The translations under genes and the position numbers were made by a program. DNA of 27,135 bases from a virus (lineage: Duplodnaviria; Heunggongvirae; Uroviricota; Caudoviricetes): the IMG/VR virus record IMGVR_UViG_2529292920_000017. The stretch is one strand, 5' to 3'. Positions within the stretch are counted from its first letter, which is position 1; every line of letters starts with the position of its first letter. The notes under the pieces are model-generated. The model saw only the letters and a program-made list of their open reading frames with translations. It was not told the origin of the DNA and did no database searches. Positions 4,570 to 16,794 of this stretch are shown in pieces.

Positions 4570-4694
4570 CGCATTGACAAGGTTTTTGATTTTTTCTGAA
4601 CCAGTAAGAAACCAGAACATGCACACACAAAAAAACCGCTTGCCATGCCGCAATCGGTCAGGTTACATTTCCGCTGCACCTCATAAAACGGGTG

Positions 4695-4922
4695 CCGGGA
4701 TTCTCAACCCGATACAGAGCAAAGCGCATAACCGCGCCAGCGGTTTTTTTGTGCGTACTGTATTGCCACGTCTTTTTCGCGTCAGAATTATGGCGGGGCG
4801 TACGGGGCCGACTTCGGTCGGGCCGGATTCTTTGCTCTCCGGTGTTGAGAACCCTGTACGTCTCGCCACCCCGAGATTCTCAACTCTGGATGGTGAGCTA
4901 TTTCTATCACCGAGCAAAGAGG
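4695..4922 (+). promoter_or_regulatory. structured non-coding leader/RNA candidate with repeated bipartite motif
   Basis: Three copies of the pair TTCTCAAC...GAGCAAAG: direct at 4701-4708/4717-4724, inverted at 4830-4837 (CTTTGCTC) and 4844-4851 (GTTGAGAA), direct at 4877-4884/4912-4919. A UUCG-tetraloop hairpin lies at 4805-4824 and a terminator hairpin at 4730-4750. The third GAGCAAAG overlaps the RBS (AAGAGG 4917-4922) of the ORF starting at 4930. Confidence 0.5.
4730..4750 (+). terminator. Rho-independent terminator candidate
   Basis: AACCGC-GCCA-GCGGTT stem-loop followed by seven T residues (4744-4750), in a non-coding stretch after the 4309..4569 gene. Confidence 0.6.
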
Positions 4923-5232: not shown

Positions 5233-5622
5233 ATGATTGACGCTCATGACTTCACAAGATGGGTGCGCACACAGGACACCCGTCTGGCTCCCGTTCTTCA
5301 GGGATTATTTGATCTCTACATCCGTGGTCGTGACAACAGAGCACGCACCACAAAACCGGAAAATGCAGACACCCTTTATTTCACAGTAGACGACTGCTAC
5401 CGCGTGGACTTCACACCACACGGGCTGGCGTTGCATTGCCTGATACCACACGGAGAATCACTGCTGGCGTATTACGACTCCCCGGCCTCCGTATTTGCGG
5501 CAATGCTGGCGCATCGCACTGCTGGCGGGTGTGCCTCGCTGAGTGAATACACCGCTGAATTTAACCGCCTTTCTGCCCTCTTCTCGCAGGAGTGGCAGCG
5601 CGTGACGGGATACCAGCCATGA
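5233..5622 (+). CDS. hypothetical protein immediately upstream of the replication initiator (P2 gene B position)
   Basis: ATG at 5233; 129 aa; stop overlaps the gene A start (ATGA at 5619-5622). Positional analogy to P2 B only; no motif recognised. Confidence 0.5.
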   Translation: MIDAHDFTRWVRTQDTRLAPVLQGLFDLYIRGRDNRARTTKPENADTLYFTVDDCYRVDFTPHGLALHCLIPHGESLLAYYDSPASVFAAMLAHRTAGGCASLSEYTAEFNRLSALFSQEWQRVTGYQP

Positions 5623-8447
5623 GTGAGTTTGCATGGAGCTGGAATGAACCACGACCAGCCATTGATCCGGCCAGATTTACGGAGCACAGGCAGGAAACTG
5701 AAACCGACCTACAACGCGCCATCCGTTACTACCTTGAGGCAGACAAAAAGGCTCTGGAAGAACAGGAAGCGAAGGAGGAAGCCTTTTTCGCACAATCCAC
5801 CGTGGGTAAAAAACTCATGGCATCCCTTGAGGAAGCCGGACAGCGTGAAAAGCTGGCACAAAGCATCATCAGCAAGCGTCAGGCAACAGAACAAGACCCG
5901 GTGGCCCGTGCTTTTGCCACACTGAAGGTGCTTCCCGTTTATCTGCGTGAACCTCTGAGCCGCCACCTCTCTTTCCTGCGCAAAAAACAGGAAGCCGATC
6001 GCCAGAAAGGCAAAAAGAGCTGGCAGGCTGAACGCTACGCGCGCGGAACCCTGCGCAAAATATTCGAACGCCTGGACCGCACCGATCACCGCTGGCTGAC
6101 ACCGGGTTATCGCTCCCTTGCCGGACGCGAACGCCTGGACGATTTGCTTTACCTGCCGCAGCTCAACAAACACCAGATACAGACGCTGGCCACCATGACG
6201 GCGGCGATGTTCAGCAGCACCTTCGAAAAACTCTGCGATGGCTTTGGTGCGACTGATGGCGAACTGACCATGGATGTAACGCTGAAGGCGTATCAGATGC
6301 TGGCCCGCATGGCGTTACACCTGCACGCCATGCCTCCACATTATGACGCACTGACAACAGACAAAGACCGGAGGAACGAACCGGACACGGAGCTGCTGCC
6401 GGGCGCAATCCTTCGCCTGACCTGTGCGGAATGGTGGAAACGCAAACTGTGGCTGTTACGTTGCGAGTGGAGAGAAGAACAACTCCGCGCCGCCTGTCTG
6501 GTTTCCAGAAAAACATCACCCTATCTGAGCCAGGACGCGTTAAGCGAGTTTCGCGCACAGCGCGAGAAAACACGCGATTTCCTGAAAAGTTTCATGCTGG
6601 AAAACGAAGACGGGTTCACGATTGATCTCGAGACAGTGTATTACGCGGGAGTAAGTAACCCGGTTCACCGTAAGGCAGAAATGATGGCCACCATGAAGGG
6701 GCTGGAACTTCTGGCCGAAGCCCGTGGCGACAAAGCGGTGTTTCTGACTGTCACCTGCCCGTCAAAATACCACGCCACAACAGAGAACGGTCATCCGAAT
6801 CCCAAATGGAACGGGGCCACCATGCGCGACTCCAGCGATTACCTGGTTAACACGTTTTTTGCGGCGGTCCGCAAGAAACTGAACCGCGACGGCCTGCGCT
6901 GGTATGGCATCCGCACGGTGGAGCCTCACCATGACGGCACCGTGCACTGGCATATGATGGTCTTTGCTCATCCGGAAGAAATCGACACCATTGTGTCCCA
7001 CACCCGCGATATTGCCATTCAGGAAGACCGCCACGAGCTGGGCAATGATATTACTCCGCGCTTTAAGGTGGAGTATGTCGACGGCTCAAAAGGCACGCCA
7101 ACCAGCTACATCGCCACCTACATCGGAAAGAACCTGGACAGCCGCGCCGTGGATGGCATCGACCCGAAAACGGGCAAGCCACGCGTTGACCACGAAACCG
7201 GAAAATCAATGGCCGAGAGCGTGGAACGCGCCATCGGCTGGGCACGCCTTCACCGGGTCCGCCAGTTCCAGTTCTTTGGCATCCCCTCCCGTCAGGTATG
7301 GCGTGAACTCCGCCGCCTTGCCAGCCAGATGGCACGCAACCCGGAAGGCCCGCAACGGCTGAAGGATGATGCAATGGATGCGGTACTCGCTGCCGCTGAT
7401 GCCGGGTGTTTTGCCACCTACATTGAGAAACAGGGCGGCGTACTTGTTCCACGCAAAGACTACCTGATTCGCACCGCCTACGACCTCGCAGATGAGCTGA
7501 ACGATTACGGCGAACAGAGCGTACAGATTTACGGGATTTGGTCACCACTCATCGGGGAATCCTCCCGTGTGTGCACGCACCCGGATAACTGGAAGCTGGT
7601 AAGACGTAAACCGGAAGCGGAAGACAGCACCCGCGAAAATGGTTTTGACCTTCAGGGCGGCCCTGCCGCCCCTTGGACTCGTGGCAATAACTGTCCCCGT
7701 GTACAGGAAACGGACAACAACGGGACAGAACAGCCAGCACCGTGGTCGCAGCTCCCTGACGGCGTTGAAGTGAACGAATGGATGCGCTCACTGAAACGGC
7801 ACGAACGCCGGGCGCTGATGCGTTCGCTTCGTGACAAACAGGCAAAAAACAGCCGTGATGAAATGCAGAGCTGGACACAGAGCCGCAAACAGCAGCGGCC
7901 TTTGCCTGATAACCACGAACTACTCGCTAAAGAATGGCGGGAGTCTGCTGAATCTCTCGGCCTGCATATCGGTGAACAGCAGATGCAGCATCTGTTACGG
8001 GGCGGCAGTCTGTACGTTGACGGCAGCATCATTGCACCGCAGGGATTTGAAATTGTACGCAAACCGGATACCCGACCGGACAGCCGGATCACGCAGCTCT
8101 GGCAGCGCCTGAGCCGTAACCACGGCGTAAGCAGTACGGAGATCCGCCATAACCCGGTCGCCAGCTATCTGGAACAGCTGGGGACATCAGACCCCGAAGC
8201 CGCCGCACGCCTGGCATCCACACTTCAGCAAGACCAGAACACCATGAAAACACCCGTTACCGTGCTTTCTGACATGCTGCGCGCCATCCGCGACGCAGAG
8301 CACGCACAGAGAATCAGTGAAACCACTGAACGCGCCCGCCGCAAAGCAGACCTGCTGCGGGGTGGCCTGACCAGTGGAAACAAAAAACAGACAGAAACGG
8401 GATTCACAAATCCCGTAAATGAGCAAAAAACGCGCCGCGATATATGA
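5619..8447 (+). CDS. A: replication initiation protein, rolling-circle HUH endonuclease (P2 gene A family)
   Basis: ORF track 5592..8447 (GTG); start placed at ATG 5619 (MSEFAWSWNEP...). Contains HUH-type motif VHWHMMVF (around 6945-6968) and paired active-site tyrosines YIATYIGK (around 7105-7128), as in P2 A/phiX174 A-type initiators. About 942 aa, with a long low-complexity R/Q/E-rich C-terminal region. Confidence 0.85.
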   Translation: MSEFAWSWNEPRPAIDPARFTEHRQETETDLQRAIRYYLEADKKALEEQEAKEEAFFAQSTVGKKLMASLEEAGQREKLAQSIISKRQATEQDPVARAFATLKVLPVYLREPLSRHLSFLRKKQEADRQKGKKSWQAERYARGTLRKIFERLDRTDHRWLTPGYRSLAGRERLDDLLYLPQLNKHQIQTLATMTAAMFSSTFEKLCDGFGATDGELTMDVTLKAYQMLARMALHLHAMPPHYDALTTDKDRRNEPDTELLPGAILRLTCAEWWKRKLWLLRCEWREEQLRAACLVSRKTSPYLSQDALSEFRAQREKTRDFLKSFMLENEDGFTIDLETVYYAGVSNPVHRKAEMMATMKGLELLAEARGDKAVFLTVTCPSKYHATTENGHPNPKWNGATMRDSSDYLVNTFFAAVRKKLNRDGLRWYGIRTVEPHHDGTVHWHMMVFAHPEEIDTIVSHTRDIAIQEDRHELGNDITPRFKVEYVDGSKGTPTSYIATYIGKNLDSRAVDGIDPKTGKPRVDHETGKSMAESVERAIGWARLHRVRQFQFFGIPSRQVWRELRRLASQMARNPEGPQRLKDDAMDAVLAAADAGCFATYIEKQGGVLVPRKDYLIRTAYDLADELNDYGEQSVQIYGIWSPLIGESSRVCTHPDNWKLVRRKPEAEDSTRENGFDLQGGPAAPWTRGNNCPRVQETDNNGTEQPAPWSQLPDGVEVNEWMRSLKRHERRALMRSLRDKQAKNSRDEMQSWTQSRKQQRPLPDNHELLAKEWRESAESLGLHIGEQQMQHLLRGGSLYVDGSIIAPQGFEIVRKPDTRPDSRITQLWQRLSRNHGVSSTEIRHNPVASYLEQLGTSDPEAAARLASTLQQDQNTMKTPVTVLSDMLRAIRDAEHAQRISETTERARRKADLLRGGLTSGNKKQTETGFTNPVNEQKTRRDI

Positions 8448-8523: not shown

Positions 8524-9483
8524 ATGAAAATTTGTATCGATGACGGCTCCACCAACATCAAGCTGGCATGGACTGAGAACGGCGAACGCCGCAACGCCAT
8601 CAGCCCGAACAGCTTCAAGTCGGAATGGTCTGCGCCGTTCGGTGGCACGCAGCCCGCGAACTACATGCTTGATGGCGTGCGCTATGGTTTTGATCCGGTC
8701 AGCGATCGCTTTGTCCAGACGACCGACACGCAATACCAGTACAGCGATGTGAATGTCATTGCCATTCATCACGCGCTGGTCAAATCAGGCATCACACCAC
8801 AGGAGGTGGATGTGGTTGTCACCCTGCCACTGAGCGAATATTTCGACACAAACGCACAGCCGGACATGGCCAACATCAACCGCAAAAAAGCAAACGTCAT
8901 GCGCCCGGTGGCGTACCAGAACGGAAAAGCATTCACTATCCGTAACGTACGGGTTATGCCTGAATCCATTCCGGCTGGTTTTAAAGCACTGGCTGACATG
9001 AGTCCGTTTGAATCCCTGCTGATTGTGGATTTAGGCGGAACCACGCTGGATGTGGCAAAGGTTCAGGGACAACTGGCAGGTATCAGCCAGGTGTTTTGCG
9101 ATCCACACGTAGGCGTTTCCCTGATGGCCGATGCCGTACTGTCGGTGATGGCCACTAACGGTATGCGTACCAGTCACCACATCGCCAATACCATTATCGA
9201 ACATCGCCATGATGAAGCCTGGCTGCGCCAGCACATCCACAATGACGCGCATTACGCCAGCCTGATGGCGGTTATTCGTGAAAAGGAAGAAACACTGAAA
9301 CAACGCGTGATCCGCGCGCTGGCGGGTTTTTCGGGTTACGGGCGGGTGATGGTTGTCGGTGGCGGGGCGGAGATTGTGGCACCCGCTATCCGCGAAGCCT
9401 GCGGAGTTAATGCGACTTTCATCGCGGACGGGGTGCCACAGTTTGCTCTGGTTAATGGGCTGTACGCAATGGACAAGGAGTAA
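8524..9483 (+). CDS. parM: actin-like segregation ATPase ParM/StbA
   Basis: ATG at 8524 with AAGGAAAAG upstream; 319 aa. N-terminus MKICIDDGSTNIKLAW and internal LLIVDLGGTTLDVA are the actin-fold phosphate-1 and phosphate-2 motifs. From memory the protein aligns along its length with plasmid R1 ParM (MLVFIDDGSTNIKLQW..., ...VMPESIPAG..., ...GGGAE...). Confidence 0.85.
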   Translation: MKICIDDGSTNIKLAWTENGERRNAISPNSFKSEWSAPFGGTQPANYMLDGVRYGFDPVSDRFVQTTDTQYQYSDVNVIAIHHALVKSGITPQEVDVVVTLPLSEYFDTNAQPDMANINRKKANVMRPVAYQNGKAFTIRNVRVMPESIPAGFKALADMSPFESLLIVDLGGTTLDVAKVQGQLAGISQVFCDPHVGVSLMADAVLSVMATNGMRTSHHIANTIIEHRHDEAWLRQHIHNDAHYASLMAVIREKEETLKQRVIRALAGFSGYGRVMVVGGGAEIVAPAIREACGVNATFIADGVPQFALVNGLYAMDKE

Positions 9484-9487
9484 ACCA

Positions 9488-9799
9488 ATGACGACACCAA
9501 CCAGACGAATAAGTTTCTATCTGAAGCCCGCCGCCGTCAAGAACGAAGGCGAAGCATGCGCCTGGCTGGACAGCCTTACACCAGAAGCCCGCAAAAGCGG
9601 CCAACGTGTGGCTTTTCTGGCCGGGCTGGCACTTCTGAAAATGAATCCGGCAGAGGCTTACCGACTGGCTGCATGGGCTGATGATGAAGCGTTATCAGTG
9701 ACACAAACCAGGACAGAACGCCCCGCATCACAGCCAGTATCAACCGCACAGATAACCAGTCAGATGGCCGGAAATATCCGGGCGTTATTTCCCGAATAA
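9488..9799 (+). CDS. parR: ParR-like centromere-binding protein (ribbon-helix-helix)
   Basis: ORF track 9353..9799; start placed at ATG 9488, 5 nt after the parM stop. 103 aa. RRISFYLKP, LDSLTPEARKSGQRVAFLAGLALL and the C-terminal NIRALFPE parallel R1 ParR (RRTIAFKLNP, LDSIPQGERSRLNRAALTAGLALY, NILRSLFPKE) as recalled from memory. Confidence 0.7.
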   Translation: MTTPTRRISFYLKPAAVKNEGEACAWLDSLTPEARKSGQRVAFLAGLALLKMNPAEAYRLAAWADDEALSVTQTRTERPASQPVSTAQITSQMAGNIRALFPE

Positions 9800-9862: not shown

Positions 9863-10234
9863 ATGCAACACATTGACAGAGAAAAAGCGCAGCGACTGAT
9901 TGAGCGGATGGAAGCGCTGGCGAAAGAAGAAAATGTCAACATCCAAAAAATAGCTGAATGTGGCCAGATAGTTCTTCGTCGTGAAAAAGACCTCAAACAA
10001 CTGATGTCTGGCGAAACCAGCAAAACATGGACTTCAGGCGAGAAGACGGTTTATTGCAGTTTCTGCAATAAATCCCAGTACGAAGTCACAAAGGTGATTG
10101 CCGGACCGTCTGTTTACATCTGCAATGAATGCGTGGATTTGTGCAATGAAATTATCAGGAAAGAAGTGACAGACAAAAAGGAAAAAACGCATGAACAGAA
10201 AACAGAAACAAGAGTTGAAATACTTCTTACGTAA
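9863..10234 (+). CDS. stand-alone ClpX-type C4 zinc-finger protein
   Basis: ATG at 9863 with AAAGGGGA upstream; 123 aa. C-terminal [38 protein letters not shown] is near-identical in pattern to the ClpX N-terminal zinc-binding domain ([38 protein letters not shown], from memory). There is no AAA+ module. N-terminal 60 aa is a charged, probably helical region. AT-rich gene. Confidence 0.75.
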
Positions 10235-10598
10235 AGAAATTGCCAGGCTTGAAGATGCAGAGTCACAATCATCAGAAATTCCGTTCGGAATGGATATCAA
10301 CGACGCCCGTATGCTTCAGGCATACCGTATAGCTCAGGCTGCACTACAGACAAAACCGTTAAATAACATACATGAAAAGTATGATTATTTTACGGATACC
10401 GCTTGCTTGCTGACATCAGAAGAACAAAAGATAGCCCAACTTTTAGGCGACGCATGGAACCTGTATTTAACATTGCCAGTTGAGCATCCAATGGGTAGAG
10501 ATGAATTTTGCCGGGCAATTCATCATTGCCAAAATATGGTGTTGGCACGCCCGGCCATCAGGGCGTTGGCCAGGAAGGGGCAAGGCTATAAAAGATAA
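10191..10598 (+). CDS. hypothetical protein (135 aa), overlaps the zinc-finger gene by 44 nt in another frame
   Basis: ATG at 10191 with AAAGGA about 9 nt upstream; AT-rich. The last gene before a terminator hairpin. No motif recognised. Confidence 0.5.
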
Positions 10599-10602
10599 GT
10601 AA

Positions 10603-10629
10603 AACGCCCTCCTCCAGGGCGTTTATTTC
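10603..10629 (+). terminator. Rho-independent terminator candidate
   Basis: AACGCCCT-cctcc-AGGGCGTT hairpin followed by TTATTTC, 5 nt after the stop of the 10191..10598 gene. Confidence 0.6.
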
Positions 10630-10631
10630 AA

Positions 10632-10658
10632 TGCACAATAGTGCACAAATTTGCACAA
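10632..10658. repeat. three TGCACAA direct repeats phased at exactly 10 bp
   Basis: TGCACAA at 10632-10638, 10642-10648 and 10652-10658; a fourth copy at 10724-10730. Nearby, GGATCCGT is directly repeated at 10702-10709 and 10713-10720. All lie in the non-coding region between the early/accessory genes and the portal gene. Confidence 0.6.
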
Positions 10659-10753
10659 TTTTTTTGAACGACTTTTTACCCTTCCGGCCCGCATGGCGGC
10701 TGGATCCGTCAAGGATCCGTGCGTGCACAAAAAAACGCGCTTTTTCTGCGCGC

Positions 10754-10772
10754 AGGTGACGGGGGAACAGCC
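10754..10772. other. candidate cos cohesive-end core
   Basis: The G-rich 19-mer GGTGACGGGGGAACAGCCC matches 13 of 19 positions of the P2 cohesive end as I remember it (GGCGAGGCGGGGAAAGCAC). It sits in the expected place, between the 3' end of portal gene Q and the accessory genes. My recollection of the P2 sequence is the weak link. Confidence 0.35.
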
Positions 10773-11083
10773 CGCGTTTCAGGGGGTAAATAGCATCCCC
10801 TGAACGATGTCGCAGCAACACAACAGAATGGCTGTATTTCTCACGCTGAGTGTGAAAAAGACGTGAGGGATTCTGATTTGATGGGGTGAAAGGTAAGGCC
10901 GTCAAAATCGCACTGAGGCGTCGAAGAACATGCAGTCAACGCGGTGGGATTGCGTAAGAGTCTGACCGTCGATGATGGCAATAAGCAGGAAAGCGTCGTG
11001 AAATTATCTGACTGATACAGGAGCTGGAGAGTCGGGGCATAAATTTTTTATGCCCCGGCGAAGCAGCAGACAAGCGAAGCGCG

Positions 11084-12130
11084 TCAGGATGTGGGCTGGA
11101 TGTCTAACAGTGCGTAAGGGTTAAAGCGGATCACCTCTTCGCCAAGCCAGTCATTGATGTGCTTCATGGCCTCCATGACGGGCATCAGCTCGTTAATTGC
11201 GTAAACCCGCGCGGCCTTCTCCACATCACCAAACGCACTTTTTTCACCCGGCATCGCCCCCATCAGTTGCGGCGGAACGCGGTGCGCAGCCAGCACATCA
11301 TCACGGGATGCCGCCTTAACATTCATGAACTCATCCTTTGCGGTGATCTGCTGGAACGGCAAAATTTGCACCCCCTCTTTGCCCCCGTTGGGCGCATGAA
11401 TGAGCACGTTTTTAAACGCACCACCACCACGCGCACCCTGTAGCGTTTCTTTCAGGGAGTCCATGCTTTCGCGGTTTACCTGCGCTGCACCGATGTAGAT
11501 GATGCACCCGGCGTGGGATCCGTTGTCGTAATACAGTTTTCTGAACATGTCCGCCGAATGAGACAGGCTGGCCGAGAGTAATGCGCCGAGATATTCCGGC
11601 ATGCCGTAGATTTCCTGGTTAATGTCAGGATTCATCAGGTGACACACTTTGCCTGGGCGAAACTGAAACGCATCCTTGCCATCCTGCACATACCACCATG
11701 ATTCAAGATCGCTTCCGCGTCGCATGTATTTCGCCAGTGCGTGCCGTAATTTAAGCGGTTCGCCGAGCATATTGCTTCGAAGCTCAAGGAATGCGTTACC
11801 GAACACAAACCAGTCCAGCGCCAGCGCCGAGAAATCCTGCCGGGAAAGCAGCGGGTGCGGGATGTAGCAACCGAGCAATACATTGCGCTTAAAGTAAAGC
11901 GCAGACTGATGCCAGGACGTTTGCCGGGCAGCTCTTGCCAGACCGTACCAGTCCACCGGGGTTTCATACCACCGCCCGTTATCAGCACAGTACATATTGT
12001 CCAGCAGGTCATGCCCGGTCAGGCGATAAGGACCATCAAATGTGAATGCACTGAGCGATGATTCTTTCCTGAGCGCATCAGCGAGATCAATGCGTGAACT
12101 CATGCGCACTTTTTTATTTTTTCTGCTCAT
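11084..12130 (-). CDS. Q: portal protein (P2 gpQ family)
   Basis: 348 aa, ATG at 12128-12130 overlapping the terminase stop (ATGA). Size and position match P2 Q: downstream of the large terminase on the leftward late operon next to cos. Confidence 0.85.
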   Translation of the reverse strand: MSRKNKKVRMSSRIDLADALRKESSLSAFTFDGPYRLTGHDLLDNMYCADNGRWYETPVDWYGLARAARQTSWHQSALYFKRNVLLGCYIPHPLLSRQDFSALALDWFVFGNAFLELRSNMLGEPLKLRHALAKYMRRGSDLESWWYVQDGKDAFQFRPGKVCHLMNPDINQEIYGMPEYLGALLSASLSHSADMFRKLYYDNGSHAGCIIYIGAAQVNRESMDSLKETLQGARGGGAFKNVLIHAPNGGKEGVQILPFQQITAKDEFMNVKAASRDDVLAAHRVPPQLMGAMPGEKSAFGDVEKAARVYAINELMPVMEAMKHINDWLGEEVIRFNPYALLDIQPTS

Positions 12131-13881
12131 CAGAACTCCATAACCGTGAAACGCTCGTTTTCTCCTTCGCCGCCAATCGGTTCGTTAATGACAGCAAGCA
12201 TGGTTGCCCACGCAAGGTCGCCGTGGCTGATCCCCCTCGCTCGGTCCGTTTCGTAAGTGATAAAGCCGCCCGGTGTTTTCACCTTACGCACGGCGTTAAA
12301 GGCCGCGACCAGCTCGCGTTCGGCGCGATCGTATTCCCACCGCCCGGCACGCATTATTTGCAGCATTTTCAGTACCAGCGACCGTTTTGATGACAGCGTG
12401 AAGGTGTACGGAATAGCGGCAGGGAAAAACCGTTTCACTATCTGATAAACAGCCTCCCCGTTCCCGCCCGTCACATCAATGCCGATGTGTTCCACGTTGT
12501 AGCGACACGTGAACTCTTCAATGACTCTGGCCTGTTCTTCAAACTCCAGCCCCTGAACGCGTCGCGTCTCCACCGTTCGAAAACGGCCACCAGGAACAGA
12601 CGGAGGAACCACCACGGACACAGCGCCGCTGTCGCCGTTGCCACTGCTGCCGTTTGCGTCATACCCAATCCATACCGGACGATTCCCCATCGGGCGGGGA
12701 GCAAAAGGTTTCCAGTCTTTCCAGTCGTCGTATCCGTCAACGCCGCAGCCAATCAGGATATTCAGGTTAAATGCCGATTCCCCTTCGCGGACAAACTCAC
12801 ACATATAGAGATTGAGGAACTCGTCTTCGGTGTTTTCATCACGAATTTCGTCGATATCGGTGTGTTTCCAGCCGTGATTAACCACATCTTCCAGCGTGAC
12901 AATTTGCCGCCACGTCCGGTCAGGGCAGATAAGCCCGTTATGCAGCGTTTTCCAGTCCACAGAAAAACGCTGGCGTTTATGCGAGGCCTTTTTCTCGTTC
13001 CAGCGGTCGCCGTTCCAGTAGGCGTATGCCTCGTGCGTTTCGGTGGATGGCGTGGAGAAGTAGGTGCGCCGCAGTCCGCTGAGGGTTGCCATAGCGCCAG
13101 CCACCTTGCGCAGTTCAGCAAAGCGACTGACCCAGAAAAATTCATCAAAATAAAAATTGCCCGTATAGGACTGTGCCGACGCAGCAGAAGTGCCGAGAAA
13201 ATGCAGCTCTGCGCCGTTGGAGAGGATGATTTTATCGCCCCCTTTCAGCTCCACATCAACTTCAGCCGCGGCCTTCTGAATAATGCTTTTAAACTGGAAC
13301 GCCTGACGACGCGACGCAGACAAAAAAATCTGGTTACGCTGGTAAGGTTGCGCCACATCGTCACGCAGCGCCATCAGCAGTGCTTCCTGTGCAAAATACC
13401 AGGTCGCCCCAATCTGTCGGGATTTCAGGATCATCCTGTTACGTATCCCGGCTTCCCTGCAAAGGGTCAGGGAGTCAAACCAGCCCCGCTGATGCCACTC
13501 CAGCCTGCTGATGATTTTTTCCCGCAGTGCGGCAATCTGTTCCGGCGTGAAATGATTTTTGAGTTTTTTCGCCCGGCCTTTCTTTCCTGCGGCCATCACA
13601 TCCGGCTGGCCATCATGCAGCTTTTTAAGCTGCCGGGTCAGCAGGTCTATTTCCTTAAAGTCACCGCCTGTTTTATTCTGTTTTTCAGTAAGCTGGATGA
13701 GGCGCGCATCGATGGACTGCGTGACACGCTGCACGGGTGGCGTTTCATCCCACTGGTCACGTTTTTTCCACGCATAAATCGTGTTCGGGTTTATTCCCAT
13801 CAGACGTGATATTTCTGCGGGCGGATAACCCTGCCAGTAAAGTTGCCGCGCACGCTGGCGCACAAAAGCGTCCTGAATCAT
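12130..13881 (-). CDS. P: terminase large (ATPase) subunit (P2 gpP family)
   Basis: 583 aa, ATG at 13879-13881 with GGGGGAG upstream on the minus strand. N-terminal MIQDAFVRQRARQLYWQGYPPAEISRLMGINPNTIYAWKK and size match P2 P. Divergent from the scaffold gene as in P2. Confidence 0.9.
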   Translation of the reverse strand: MIQDAFVRQRARQLYWQGYPPAEISRLMGINPNTIYAWKKRDQWDETPPVQRVTQSIDARLIQLTEKQNKTGGDFKEIDLLTRQLKKLHDGQPDVMAAGKKGRAKKLKNHFTPEQIAALREKIISRLEWHQRGWFDSLTLCREAGIRNRMILKSRQIGATWYFAQEALLMALRDDVAQPYQRNQIFLSASRRQAFQFKSIIQKAAAEVDVELKGGDKIILSNGAELHFLGTSAASAQSYTGNFYFDEFFWVSRFAELRKVAGAMATLSGLRRTYFSTPSTETHEAYAYWNGDRWNEKKASHKRQRFSVDWKTLHNGLICPDRTWRQIVTLEDVVNHGWKHTDIDEIRDENTEDEFLNLYMCEFVREGESAFNLNILIGCGVDGYDDWKDWKPFAPRPMGNRPVWIGYDANGSSGNGDSGAVSVVVPPSVPGGRFRTVETRRVQGLEFEEQARVIEEFTCRYNVEHIGIDVTGGNGEAVYQIVKRFFPAAIPYTFTLSSKRSLVLKMLQIMRAGRWEYDRAERELVAAFNAVRKVKTPGGFITYETDRARGISHGDLAWATMLAVINEPIGGEGENERFTVMEF

Positions 13882-15993: not shown

Positions 15994-16794
15994 ATGATTA
16001 CTCCTGCACAACAACACTGGCAGAACGTGATGGCACAGCGCGCAGGCCGGGCGAATGAAGGCGTGGACCACGCCGCGCGTACCGCGCATGAAGAGGTGCT
16101 GTATCGTCTGCGTCTGGCACAGGCCCGGCTTAAGGGCGTACAGGCCAGAAGCGCGAAAGCCGCCATCAAAAAAGAGTTGTTGCCGGATTTTTCCGGCTGG
16201 ATTGAGGGAACGCTGGAGGCTGACGGCGGGCAGCAGGATGAAGTGATTGCCACGCTGATGGTGTGGGCGATTGACTGTGGCGATCTTCCGCTTGCGCTGC
16301 GTATCGGCGCGTATGTAGTCCGTCACAACCTCATCATGCCGGATAACTTTGGCCGTACTGCTGCCACGGTACTGGCCGAAGAAATCTGTAATCCGGTACT
16401 GACGCAGGCCGGGACGGATGCCGACGCGGATTTGTCCGCCTTTATCGAACCACTGGACACCCTCCGGGAGATTGTCACCGACCAGGACATGCCGGACGAA
16501 GTGCGCGCCAAATTATGCAAAGCGTGCGCCTTTGCCCGCCGTGGCCTGAGTGATGCGGACAGCATGGCCCTGTCACTGAAGCTGCTGCGCGAAGCAATGC
16601 ACCTGAACCCGAACGCAGGTGTGAAACGCGAGATTGCAACCCTTTCCCGCGCCCTGAAAAAAGCCGATTCCGCAGCCGAACCAGAAGACGCCAGCGCACA
16701 GCAGGCGCAGGACGAAAGCAGCAAAAGTAAAAAGACAACGCGGAAGCCTGCAACACGAAAAACCACCGCGACGCAGAAGGCGAAGCGCGGTTAA
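15994..16794 (+). CDS. M: terminase small (endonuclease) subunit (P2 gpM family)
   Basis: ATG at 15994 with ACGGAGAG upstream; 266 aa; position after the capsid gene as in P2. C-terminus is basic and low-complexity. Confidence 0.8.
   Translation: MITPAQQHWQNVMAQRAGRANEGVDHAARTAHEEVLYRLRLAQARLKGVQARSAKAAIKKELLPDFSGWIEGTLEADGGQQDEVIATLMVWAIDCGDLPLALRIGAYVVRHNLIMPDNFGRTAATVLAEEICNPVLTQAGTDADADLSAFIEPLDTLREIVTDQDMPDEVRAKLCKACAFARRGLSDADSMALSLKLLREAMHLNPNAGVKREIATLSRALKKADSAAEPEDASAQQAQDESSKSKKTTRKPATRKTTATQKAKRG

Follow-up and report, generated by a model that had tools for sequence, protein, structure and literature searches.

In phage lambda, the cos site consists of cosQ, cosN and cosB, the last with the elements R3-I1-R2-R1. 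The repeats of a lambda-type cosB are binding sites of the small terminase subunit, they lie on that side of cosN which is packaged first, and IHF induces a bend. The described systems closest to the locus treated here are the cos sites of phages P2 and 186 and of satellite P4. All three have three TGCAT pentamers (12-13 and then 10 bp apart), a fourth TGCAT exactly 72 bp further on, and an annotated 19-nt 5' cohesive end that starts 29 bp after the start of the fourth copy. The Ralstonia phage phiRSA1 has TGCAT at -129, -110, -100 and -29 relative to its end, and the corresponding distances are 71 and 29 bp. In the Pseudomonas phage phiCTX, (T/C)GCAG occurs at about -109 and -99, i.e., 10 bp apart, with 71 bp to a proximal copy, TGCAG (TGCAGAAAAAG), at -28 from the end; the phiCTX record annotates repeats R4-R6 and an IHF site around cos. 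As the 1990 work of Ziermann and Calendar is cited in two later papers (PMC5694545 and PMC9594776), the cos sites of P2 and P4 have a conserved core of 55 bp. By our own reading, the fourth repeat would be the first element of this core, with TGCATTAAAA as its P2/P4 counterpart.

The stretch of DNA analyzed here (the window, 27,135 nucleotides) is a P88-like prophage (Xuanwuvirus, P2 family); its nearest phage records are P88 and other Xuanwuvirus members, which are 92-96% identical to it. The prophage carries the P2-type genes for gpA, gpQ, gpP, gpO, gpN and gpM, as well as integrase, scaffold and capsid genes. The region between gpA and gpQ is a known hotspot for defense and cargo genes beside cos in P2-like phages (PMC9122126), and in the window, such accessory genes extend to position 10598. 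Between this hotspot and the portal gene Q lies a short intergenic element, the G-rich strand of which reads towards Q, as it does in P2. We propose that positions 10632-10783 are very probably the cos (cohesive-end) packaging site of the prophage. As such, it is unannotated, and it would be a variant of the known P2-family cos sites in both its repeat and its cohesive-end sequence.

Anatomy of the predicted cos region

The features of the window that bear on this proposal are listed below.

5592-8447: gpA replication protein
8524-9483: ParM (StbA), near the array, in the cos-proximal hotspot
to 9799: end of a StbB-like protein, which together with ParM forms a plasmid-partition cassette (8524-9799)
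9863-10234: small protein with a ClpX-type C4 zinc finger, among the last cargo genes before the predicted cos
10191-10598: 135-aa open reading frame with no Pfam match, overlapping the ClpX-zinc-finger frame; last cargo before the predicted cos
10602-10624, plus strand: hairpin AAACGCCCT / AGGGCGTTT that ends the accessory operon, last feature before the predicted cos module
10632-10667, plus strand: distal array, TGCACAA three times (10632, 10642, 10652) with a conserved TTTTTTTGA tail; putative terminase recognition (cosB-like) element
10668-10723, plus strand: spacer of fixed length and variable sequence, with the patch CCCTTCCGGCCC and a direct repeat of GGATCCGT
10724-10735, plus strand: proximal (fourth) TGCACAA and an A-run, 31 bp upstream of the 19-mer
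10735-10754: GC-rich inverted repeat (ACGCGC..GCGCGC), ending in a conserved GCGCGCA that abuts the 19-mer
10755-10773, plus strand: predicted cosN, the presumed 5' cohesive end GGTGACGGGGGAACAGCCC
10774-10804: right flank, a partly conserved GCG and then the inverted repeat TTCAGGGG/CCCCTGAA
11033-11057: terminator hairpin of the portal gene
11084-12130, minus strand: portal protein, P2 gpQ homologue (PF04860)
12130-13881, minus strand: large terminase subunit, P2 gpP homologue with an N-terminal helix-turn-helix (PF06056 Terminase_5, HTH_23, Terminase_6N, Terminase_6C)
15994-16794, plus strand: small terminase subunit, P2 gpM homologue (PF05944)

The window thus encodes a P2-type terminase pair (gpP with Terminase_5/6N/6C domains and gpM of PF05944) together with a gpQ portal.

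The individual elements reported in the preliminary description are all present. Three TGCACAA heptamers lie one helical turn apart (10632-10638, 10642-10648 and 10652-10658; start-to-start distances of 10 and 10 bp), a fourth is located at 10724-10730, with its start 72 bp past that of the third, and GGATCCGT is directly repeated at 10702-10709 and 10713-10720. The heptamer by itself is not unusual in the window, in which eight copies were found against 7.1 expected. The clustering is unusual, since a triple of any 7-mer at an equal spacing of 8-12 bp occurs just once in the window and in none of 300 simulated windows of matched dinucleotide composition. A chance origin of the array is rejected.

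The G-rich 19-mer GGTGACGGGGGAACAGCCC is unique in the window. The preliminary description had also claimed that it partly matches the cohesive end of P2; the match exists (13 of 19 positions), but taken alone it is not above chance, and eight 19-mers in the window match that of P2 equally well (six or fewer mismatches). The significance of the 19-mer therefore comes from its context and from intermediate sequences, which are described below, and its register, placed by homology, is uncertain by about 2-3 nt. The inverted repeat on its left resembles an intrinsic terminator when read on the minus strand, and Novemvirus-type relatives keep the GCGCGCA and not the hairpin. The cos region has no match to a known RNA family.

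Some other observations concern the surroundings of the site. The gap from the 19-mer to the portal stop codon (10774-11083, 310 bp) is conserved among P88-like phages and contains the inverted repeat at 10778-10804 and short open reading frames that are annotated as hypothetical in the P88 record. The virion-derived P88_4B11 record (L001:78-100) lacks 5 bp (CCCGC) at the 3' margin of the predicted 19-mer. This deletion is absent from all IMG/VR contigs; it could be genuine variation or have arisen during assembly, as an artefact at a physical end. Elsewhere in the window, Rfam matches on the plus strand mark isrK (4676-4750) and a C4 antisense RNA (4786-4873), i.e., a P1/P7-type immunity RNA pair within a P2-family prophage.

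Conservation among relatives and satellites

The preliminary description had suggested a comparison with the cos regions of P2 and 186, and the position, the orientation, the repeat layout and the G-rich 19-mer all prove to be colinear with them. The mapped or record-annotated cos sites of P4, phiCTX and phiRSA1 are likewise colinear with the window, in which the frame consists of TGCACAA units at 10, 10, 72 and 31 bp.

Three scans of IMG/VR, keyed on the window-type 19-mer, the array and the P2-type 19-mer, respectively, gave about 220 distinct cos regions. The 19-mer columns that served as keys are conserved by construction, and the array-keyed scan is the unbiased one. Among the 110 distinct sites of the P88/Novemvirus type, TGCACAA is present at -123 in 78, at -113 in 95, at -103 in 100 and at -31 in 101, and the last distal repeat and the proximal one are 72 bp apart in 106 of 109. 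The P2/186/P4-type sites, also 110 in number, have TGCAT at -29 (107 sites), -101/-100 (90), -111/-110 (82) and -124/-121/-120 (75); here, the corresponding distance is 72 bp in 82 of 109 sites and 71-73 bp in 102 of 109, and it is held despite spacers that are unrelated in sequence. When representatives below 85% identity are compared, only two segments have a high information content, the distal array and the stretch from about -36 to +26. A distal array of two to four phased TGCA-core repeats about 72 bp from a proximal repeat, a feature derived in the present analysis from the approximately 220 sites, is present in the window.

The homology of the relatives begins exactly at the first repeat (10632), and the sequence upstream of it is unrelated. 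The module occurs, unannotated, in 1106 of 5426 complete E. coli genomes, and most of the alignments listed start at 10632. In the genome scan, an identical core was found in 17 loci from many genera of the Enterobacterales, including Kluyvera, Erwinia, Pantoea, Mixta, Kosakonia, Enterobacter, Citrobacter, Izhakiella, Apirhabdus and Salmonella, and also in one contig labelled Vagococcus.

The array-keyed scan returned variant 19-mers in the same register, namely GGCGAGGCGGGGGAGCAAG, GGTGCCGGGGGAACAGCCC and GGTGACGGGGGGCAAGCCC. The first 12 nt of GGCGAGGCGGGGGAGCAAG are those of P2, and the TGCACAA-array loci that carry it have a core that aligns with phiCTX. These intermediates link the window 19-mer to established cohesive ends. 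Support for homology of the core to P2 is transitive, through the hybrid class, phiCTX and the colinear geometry; the direct match of the two 19-mers is not above chance.

A prophage of E. coli S1-CAM-02-A (L295:7000-7160) shares about 95% identity with the window over the array, the spacer and the proximal repeat. Its 19-mer is a different one, GGCGACGAGGGAAGGGCGC, and the similarity drops from within the 19-mer onward; its gpP and gpM are 73% and 56% identical to those of the window. This would indicate that the upstream recognition half and the cut site can diverge separately.

The spacers and the heptamer itself display some patterns of their own. Many P2/186/P4-type and hybrid spacers contain a GC-rich dyad (CGCCAG..CTGGCG or CCGCGCC..GGCGCGG) at about -80 to -50 from cos, followed by a GGATCC- or GGTCTG-like sequence (e.g., L008:356-380 and L010:258-278). 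The dyad is absent from P2, and the window has its GGATCCGT duplication, which is subtype-specific, at the equivalent place. Arrays of three or more TGCACAA-type repeats were also seen in viral contigs that are unrelated and have no cos-like core (L131, L134, L135, L139, L142, L143 and L166); in L143, the copies are numerous and run in both orientations. A heptamer array is thus not enough by itself to identify a cos site.

Satellites depend on the terminase of their helper, and so, DNA that is common to a satellite and a helper is informative. Thirteen P4-like loci of the P2 type have no portal homologue in the at least 3 kb of sequence downstream, and all 13 keep all four TGCAT positions. 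A satellite-like element with a window-type site is present in Izhakiella and Apirhabdus, and its cos subtype was also found in Candidatus Erwinia dacicola, a Kluyvera MAG and Enterobacter hormaechei. On the 3' side of cos, the Izhakiella/Apirhabdus element encodes an Ogr/delta-like protein and one of 264 aa that matches no family, as well as a P2-family capsid protein, extended by about 130 aa at its N-terminus, and an integrase. Over the 5.9-7 kb downstream of cos, neither a portal nor a terminase gene was found in this satellite family. A related IMG/VR contig encodes, upstream, a P4-alpha-type primase (zinc ribbon, Toprim and DUF927), an AlpA-like helix-turn-helix protein and an Ash protein. 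The gene order across the loci of the family (L309:1128-6050, L303:4118-7140 and L313:1-12075) is AlpA-like, Ash, alpha-type primase, integrase, cargo, cos, Ogr/delta-like, 264-aa protein, capsid and a second integrase.

Around cos, the alignment of these satellites with the window is confined to the segment that starts at the first repeat and ends about 10 nt beyond the 19-mer. Against the E. coli genomes, the module is the only intergenic match of the satellite, with two other short matches in the ogr-like and capsid genes. The 10/10/72/31 spacing is kept in one IMG/VR contig of the family even though the second and fourth repeats have diverged, and E. hormaechei B17-3 has both a phage-type and a satellite-type site. 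No published description of a TGCACAA-type satellite family was found in the searchable literature.

These results support the main suggestion of the preliminary description, that the region resembles a cos site with a cosB-like array: the layout is colinear with known cos sites, the repeats and the 19-mer stand out as conserved in the comparison of about 110 relatives, and satellites share the module.

A proposed packaging signal and its alternatives

We infer from this arrangement that the terminase (gpP and gpM) would recognize a two-part signal on the accessory-gene side of the cut. The distal part would be the three TGCACAA repeats one helical turn apart, and the proximal part, the single TGCACAA 72 bp on. 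The four repeats share one orientation and would face approximately the same side of the helix, with the geometry set by the constant spacer, as 72 bp is close to seven helical turns. Bound in this manner, presumably by one of the terminase subunits, the repeats would place the nuclease so that it nicks the strands in a staggered fashion about 31 bp past the proximal repeat, and they may serve the initiation of packaging, its termination or both. The product would be a G-rich 5' overhang of 19 nt, GGTGACGGGGGAACAGCCC, at 10755-10773, give or take 2-3 nt. Since the offset from the proximal repeat is 31 bp instead of 29 bp, the nicks may sit about 2 nt to the left of the alignment. The cosB-like role of the array is proposed by analogy. 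No mapped virion ends of any P88-like phage were found in the searchable literature, and no IMG/VR contig, these loci being mostly prophage predictions, ends exactly at the 19-mer.

Phased repeats next to a gene cluster could have other functions, and the preliminary description had allowed that they might equally be an operator. They would then be an operator or promoter for the accessory genes or for rightward transcription and have nothing to do with packaging. TTGCAC does resemble a -35 hexamer. In P2, the annotated starts of the old/tin transcripts are on the opposite strand, and the TGCAT array (33424-33479; L005:1425-1480) is 26-50 bp upstream of them, where it overlaps the upstream part of the old/tin promoter and may have a second role. 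In the window, however, the accessory genes read towards the array and are closed off ahead of it by a hairpin, and no promoter-like site is predicted at the array on either strand. Among the relatives, the distance from the array to the 19-mer is fixed whatever lies upstream, and satellites with unrelated neighbors keep the array. With its placement independent of the upstream genes and no promoter predicted there, the operator explanation finds no support, and we regard it as very improbable. The repeats might instead be a parC-like centromere that belongs to the upstream ParM/StbB cassette. Known parC sites, such as that of plasmid R1, are arrays of phased direct repeats, and in the window, too, direct repeats spaced by about one helical turn are close to a parM gene, the ParM (8524-9483) and StbB-like (to 9799) genes being 1-2 kb upstream of the array. 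However, two further genes and a terminator-like hairpin separate the cassette from the array. In addition, only 44 of the 81 array-bearing relatives (about half) have ParM/StbB upstream, the other 37 lack it, none of the four hybrid-class loci or the 86 P2-type loci has it, and the satellites and phiT5282H carry the array without it. The array of the window differs from parC in being independent of ParM/StbB and locked to the cos core; the distribution of the two rules out a ParMR centromere, and a parC-like role is hardly credible.

Two other explanations accept that the prophage has a cos region and differ in the function of its parts. One is that the repeats do not serve the initiation of packaging by the terminase but are bound by a DNA-bending protein of the host or act as a termination signal like cosQ. 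In favor of this, they lie to the right-end side of the cut, the constant 72-bp spacer points to a complex with bent or wrapped DNA, for which an accessory protein may be required, and the IHF site in the phiCTX record is near cos. Against this, the repeat differs by lineage (TGCAT, TGCACAA or TGCAG), satellites carry the repeat type of the phages that share their 19-mer, and no good IHF consensus is apparent by eye in the window spacer. A lineage-specific repeat that is matched in the satellites fits a phage-encoded reader better than a conserved host protein, and we consider this explanation unlikely. The other is that P88-like phages are cut elsewhere, e.g., near 10677, and that the G-rich 19-mer is not the overhang. 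The P88_4B11 record (LR595891), the one virion-derived record to begin near the site, starts at the equivalent of 10677, a position 78 bp upstream of the 19-mer, and relative to the window, its two ends are contiguous. However, the depositors chose nucleotide 1 relative to reference genomes after trimming repeats at the contig ends, position 10677 is within the poorly conserved spacer, and the layout of the window is colinear with phages that have known ends. The start of the record as a physical end is rejected, nucleotide 1 having been chosen by the authors, and a cut away from the 19-mer seems extremely improbable.

If, as we propose, 10632-10783 is the cos site of the prophage, then the repeats may be read by gpM, by the helix-turn-helix at the N-terminus of gpP or by a host factor; gpP is also the candidate cosN nuclease. 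The helix-turn-helix of gpP differs between TGCAT-type and TGCACAA-type loci, but this difference is confounded by relatedness. Across P2, phiRSA1, phiCTX and the window, the putative recognition helix of this domain does not change in step with the repeat type, and an assignment of the reader from the gpP helix-turn-helix was rejected on these grounds. Among solved structures, there are no relatives of gpM and nothing useful for the N-terminus of gpP.

Significance and comparison with known systems

It is possible, if somewhat doubtful, that the type of the TGCA-core repeat (TGCAT, TGCACAA or TGCAG), set in a rigid frame of 10/10/72/~30 bp, is a packaging specificity code of the P2 family. 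If this were true, the repeat type would divide helpers and satellites into compatibility groups, and the TGCACAA group, which about 20% of the complete E. coli genomes carry, would have a dedicated family of P4-like satellites with a P2-type capsid protein. It would also imply that the invariant 72-bp spacer reflects a wrapped or looped terminase-DNA complex that measures the distance to the nick.

In the searchable literature, neither the TGCAT/TGCACAA array nor the family-wide frame nor a P88 cos is described; Ziermann and Calendar (1990) may already note the array. The proposal would place the cos site of a very common and little-studied group of prophages. It would also provide a concrete candidate, four oriented repeats in a fixed frame, for the equivalent of lambda cosB that has long been lacking in the P2 family. 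Longer cos flanks raised transduction more than 1000-fold in P2/P4-type cosmids and transducing particles (PMC9594776). The array should aid the design of such cosmids and particles, and it should help to predict which satellites can be packaged by a given helper phage.

The likeness to lambda would be one of organization, if the lambda site is taken as the analogue: both would be multipartite sites in which repeated binding elements beside the nick position the nuclease and in which geometry matters. Homology of sequence or protein is absent, the small subunit belongs to another family (PF05944 in the window), and the large subunit of the window has its own N-terminal helix-turn-helix. The site of phiCTX is closer, as it shares the phased repeats with a proximal copy, and its core aligns with the TGCACAA-array intermediates; it differs in the repeat variant, in the length of the overhang (21-nt ends) and in its host.

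The closest comparison is with P2, 186 and P4. The differences are the repeat unit, which is TGCACAA in the window and TGCAT in the others, the 19-mer (only 13 of 19 positions identical to P2), the distance from the proximal repeat to the aligned end (31 bp versus 29 bp for the P2 type), the gap to Q (310 bp versus 167 bp in P2) and the proteins, with gpP 42-46% and gpM 33-37% identical between the window and P2-type loci. Nonetheless, the site is found where theirs are, with the accessory hotspot on one side and portal gene Q on the other, in the same orientation. It has a G-rich 19-mer beginning GGYGA, a TGCA-core repeat about 30 bp upstream of it and a triple array 72 bp further, it accompanies P2-type gpP and gpM genes, and, as in P2 and its relatives, the cos module is common to phages and their satellites.
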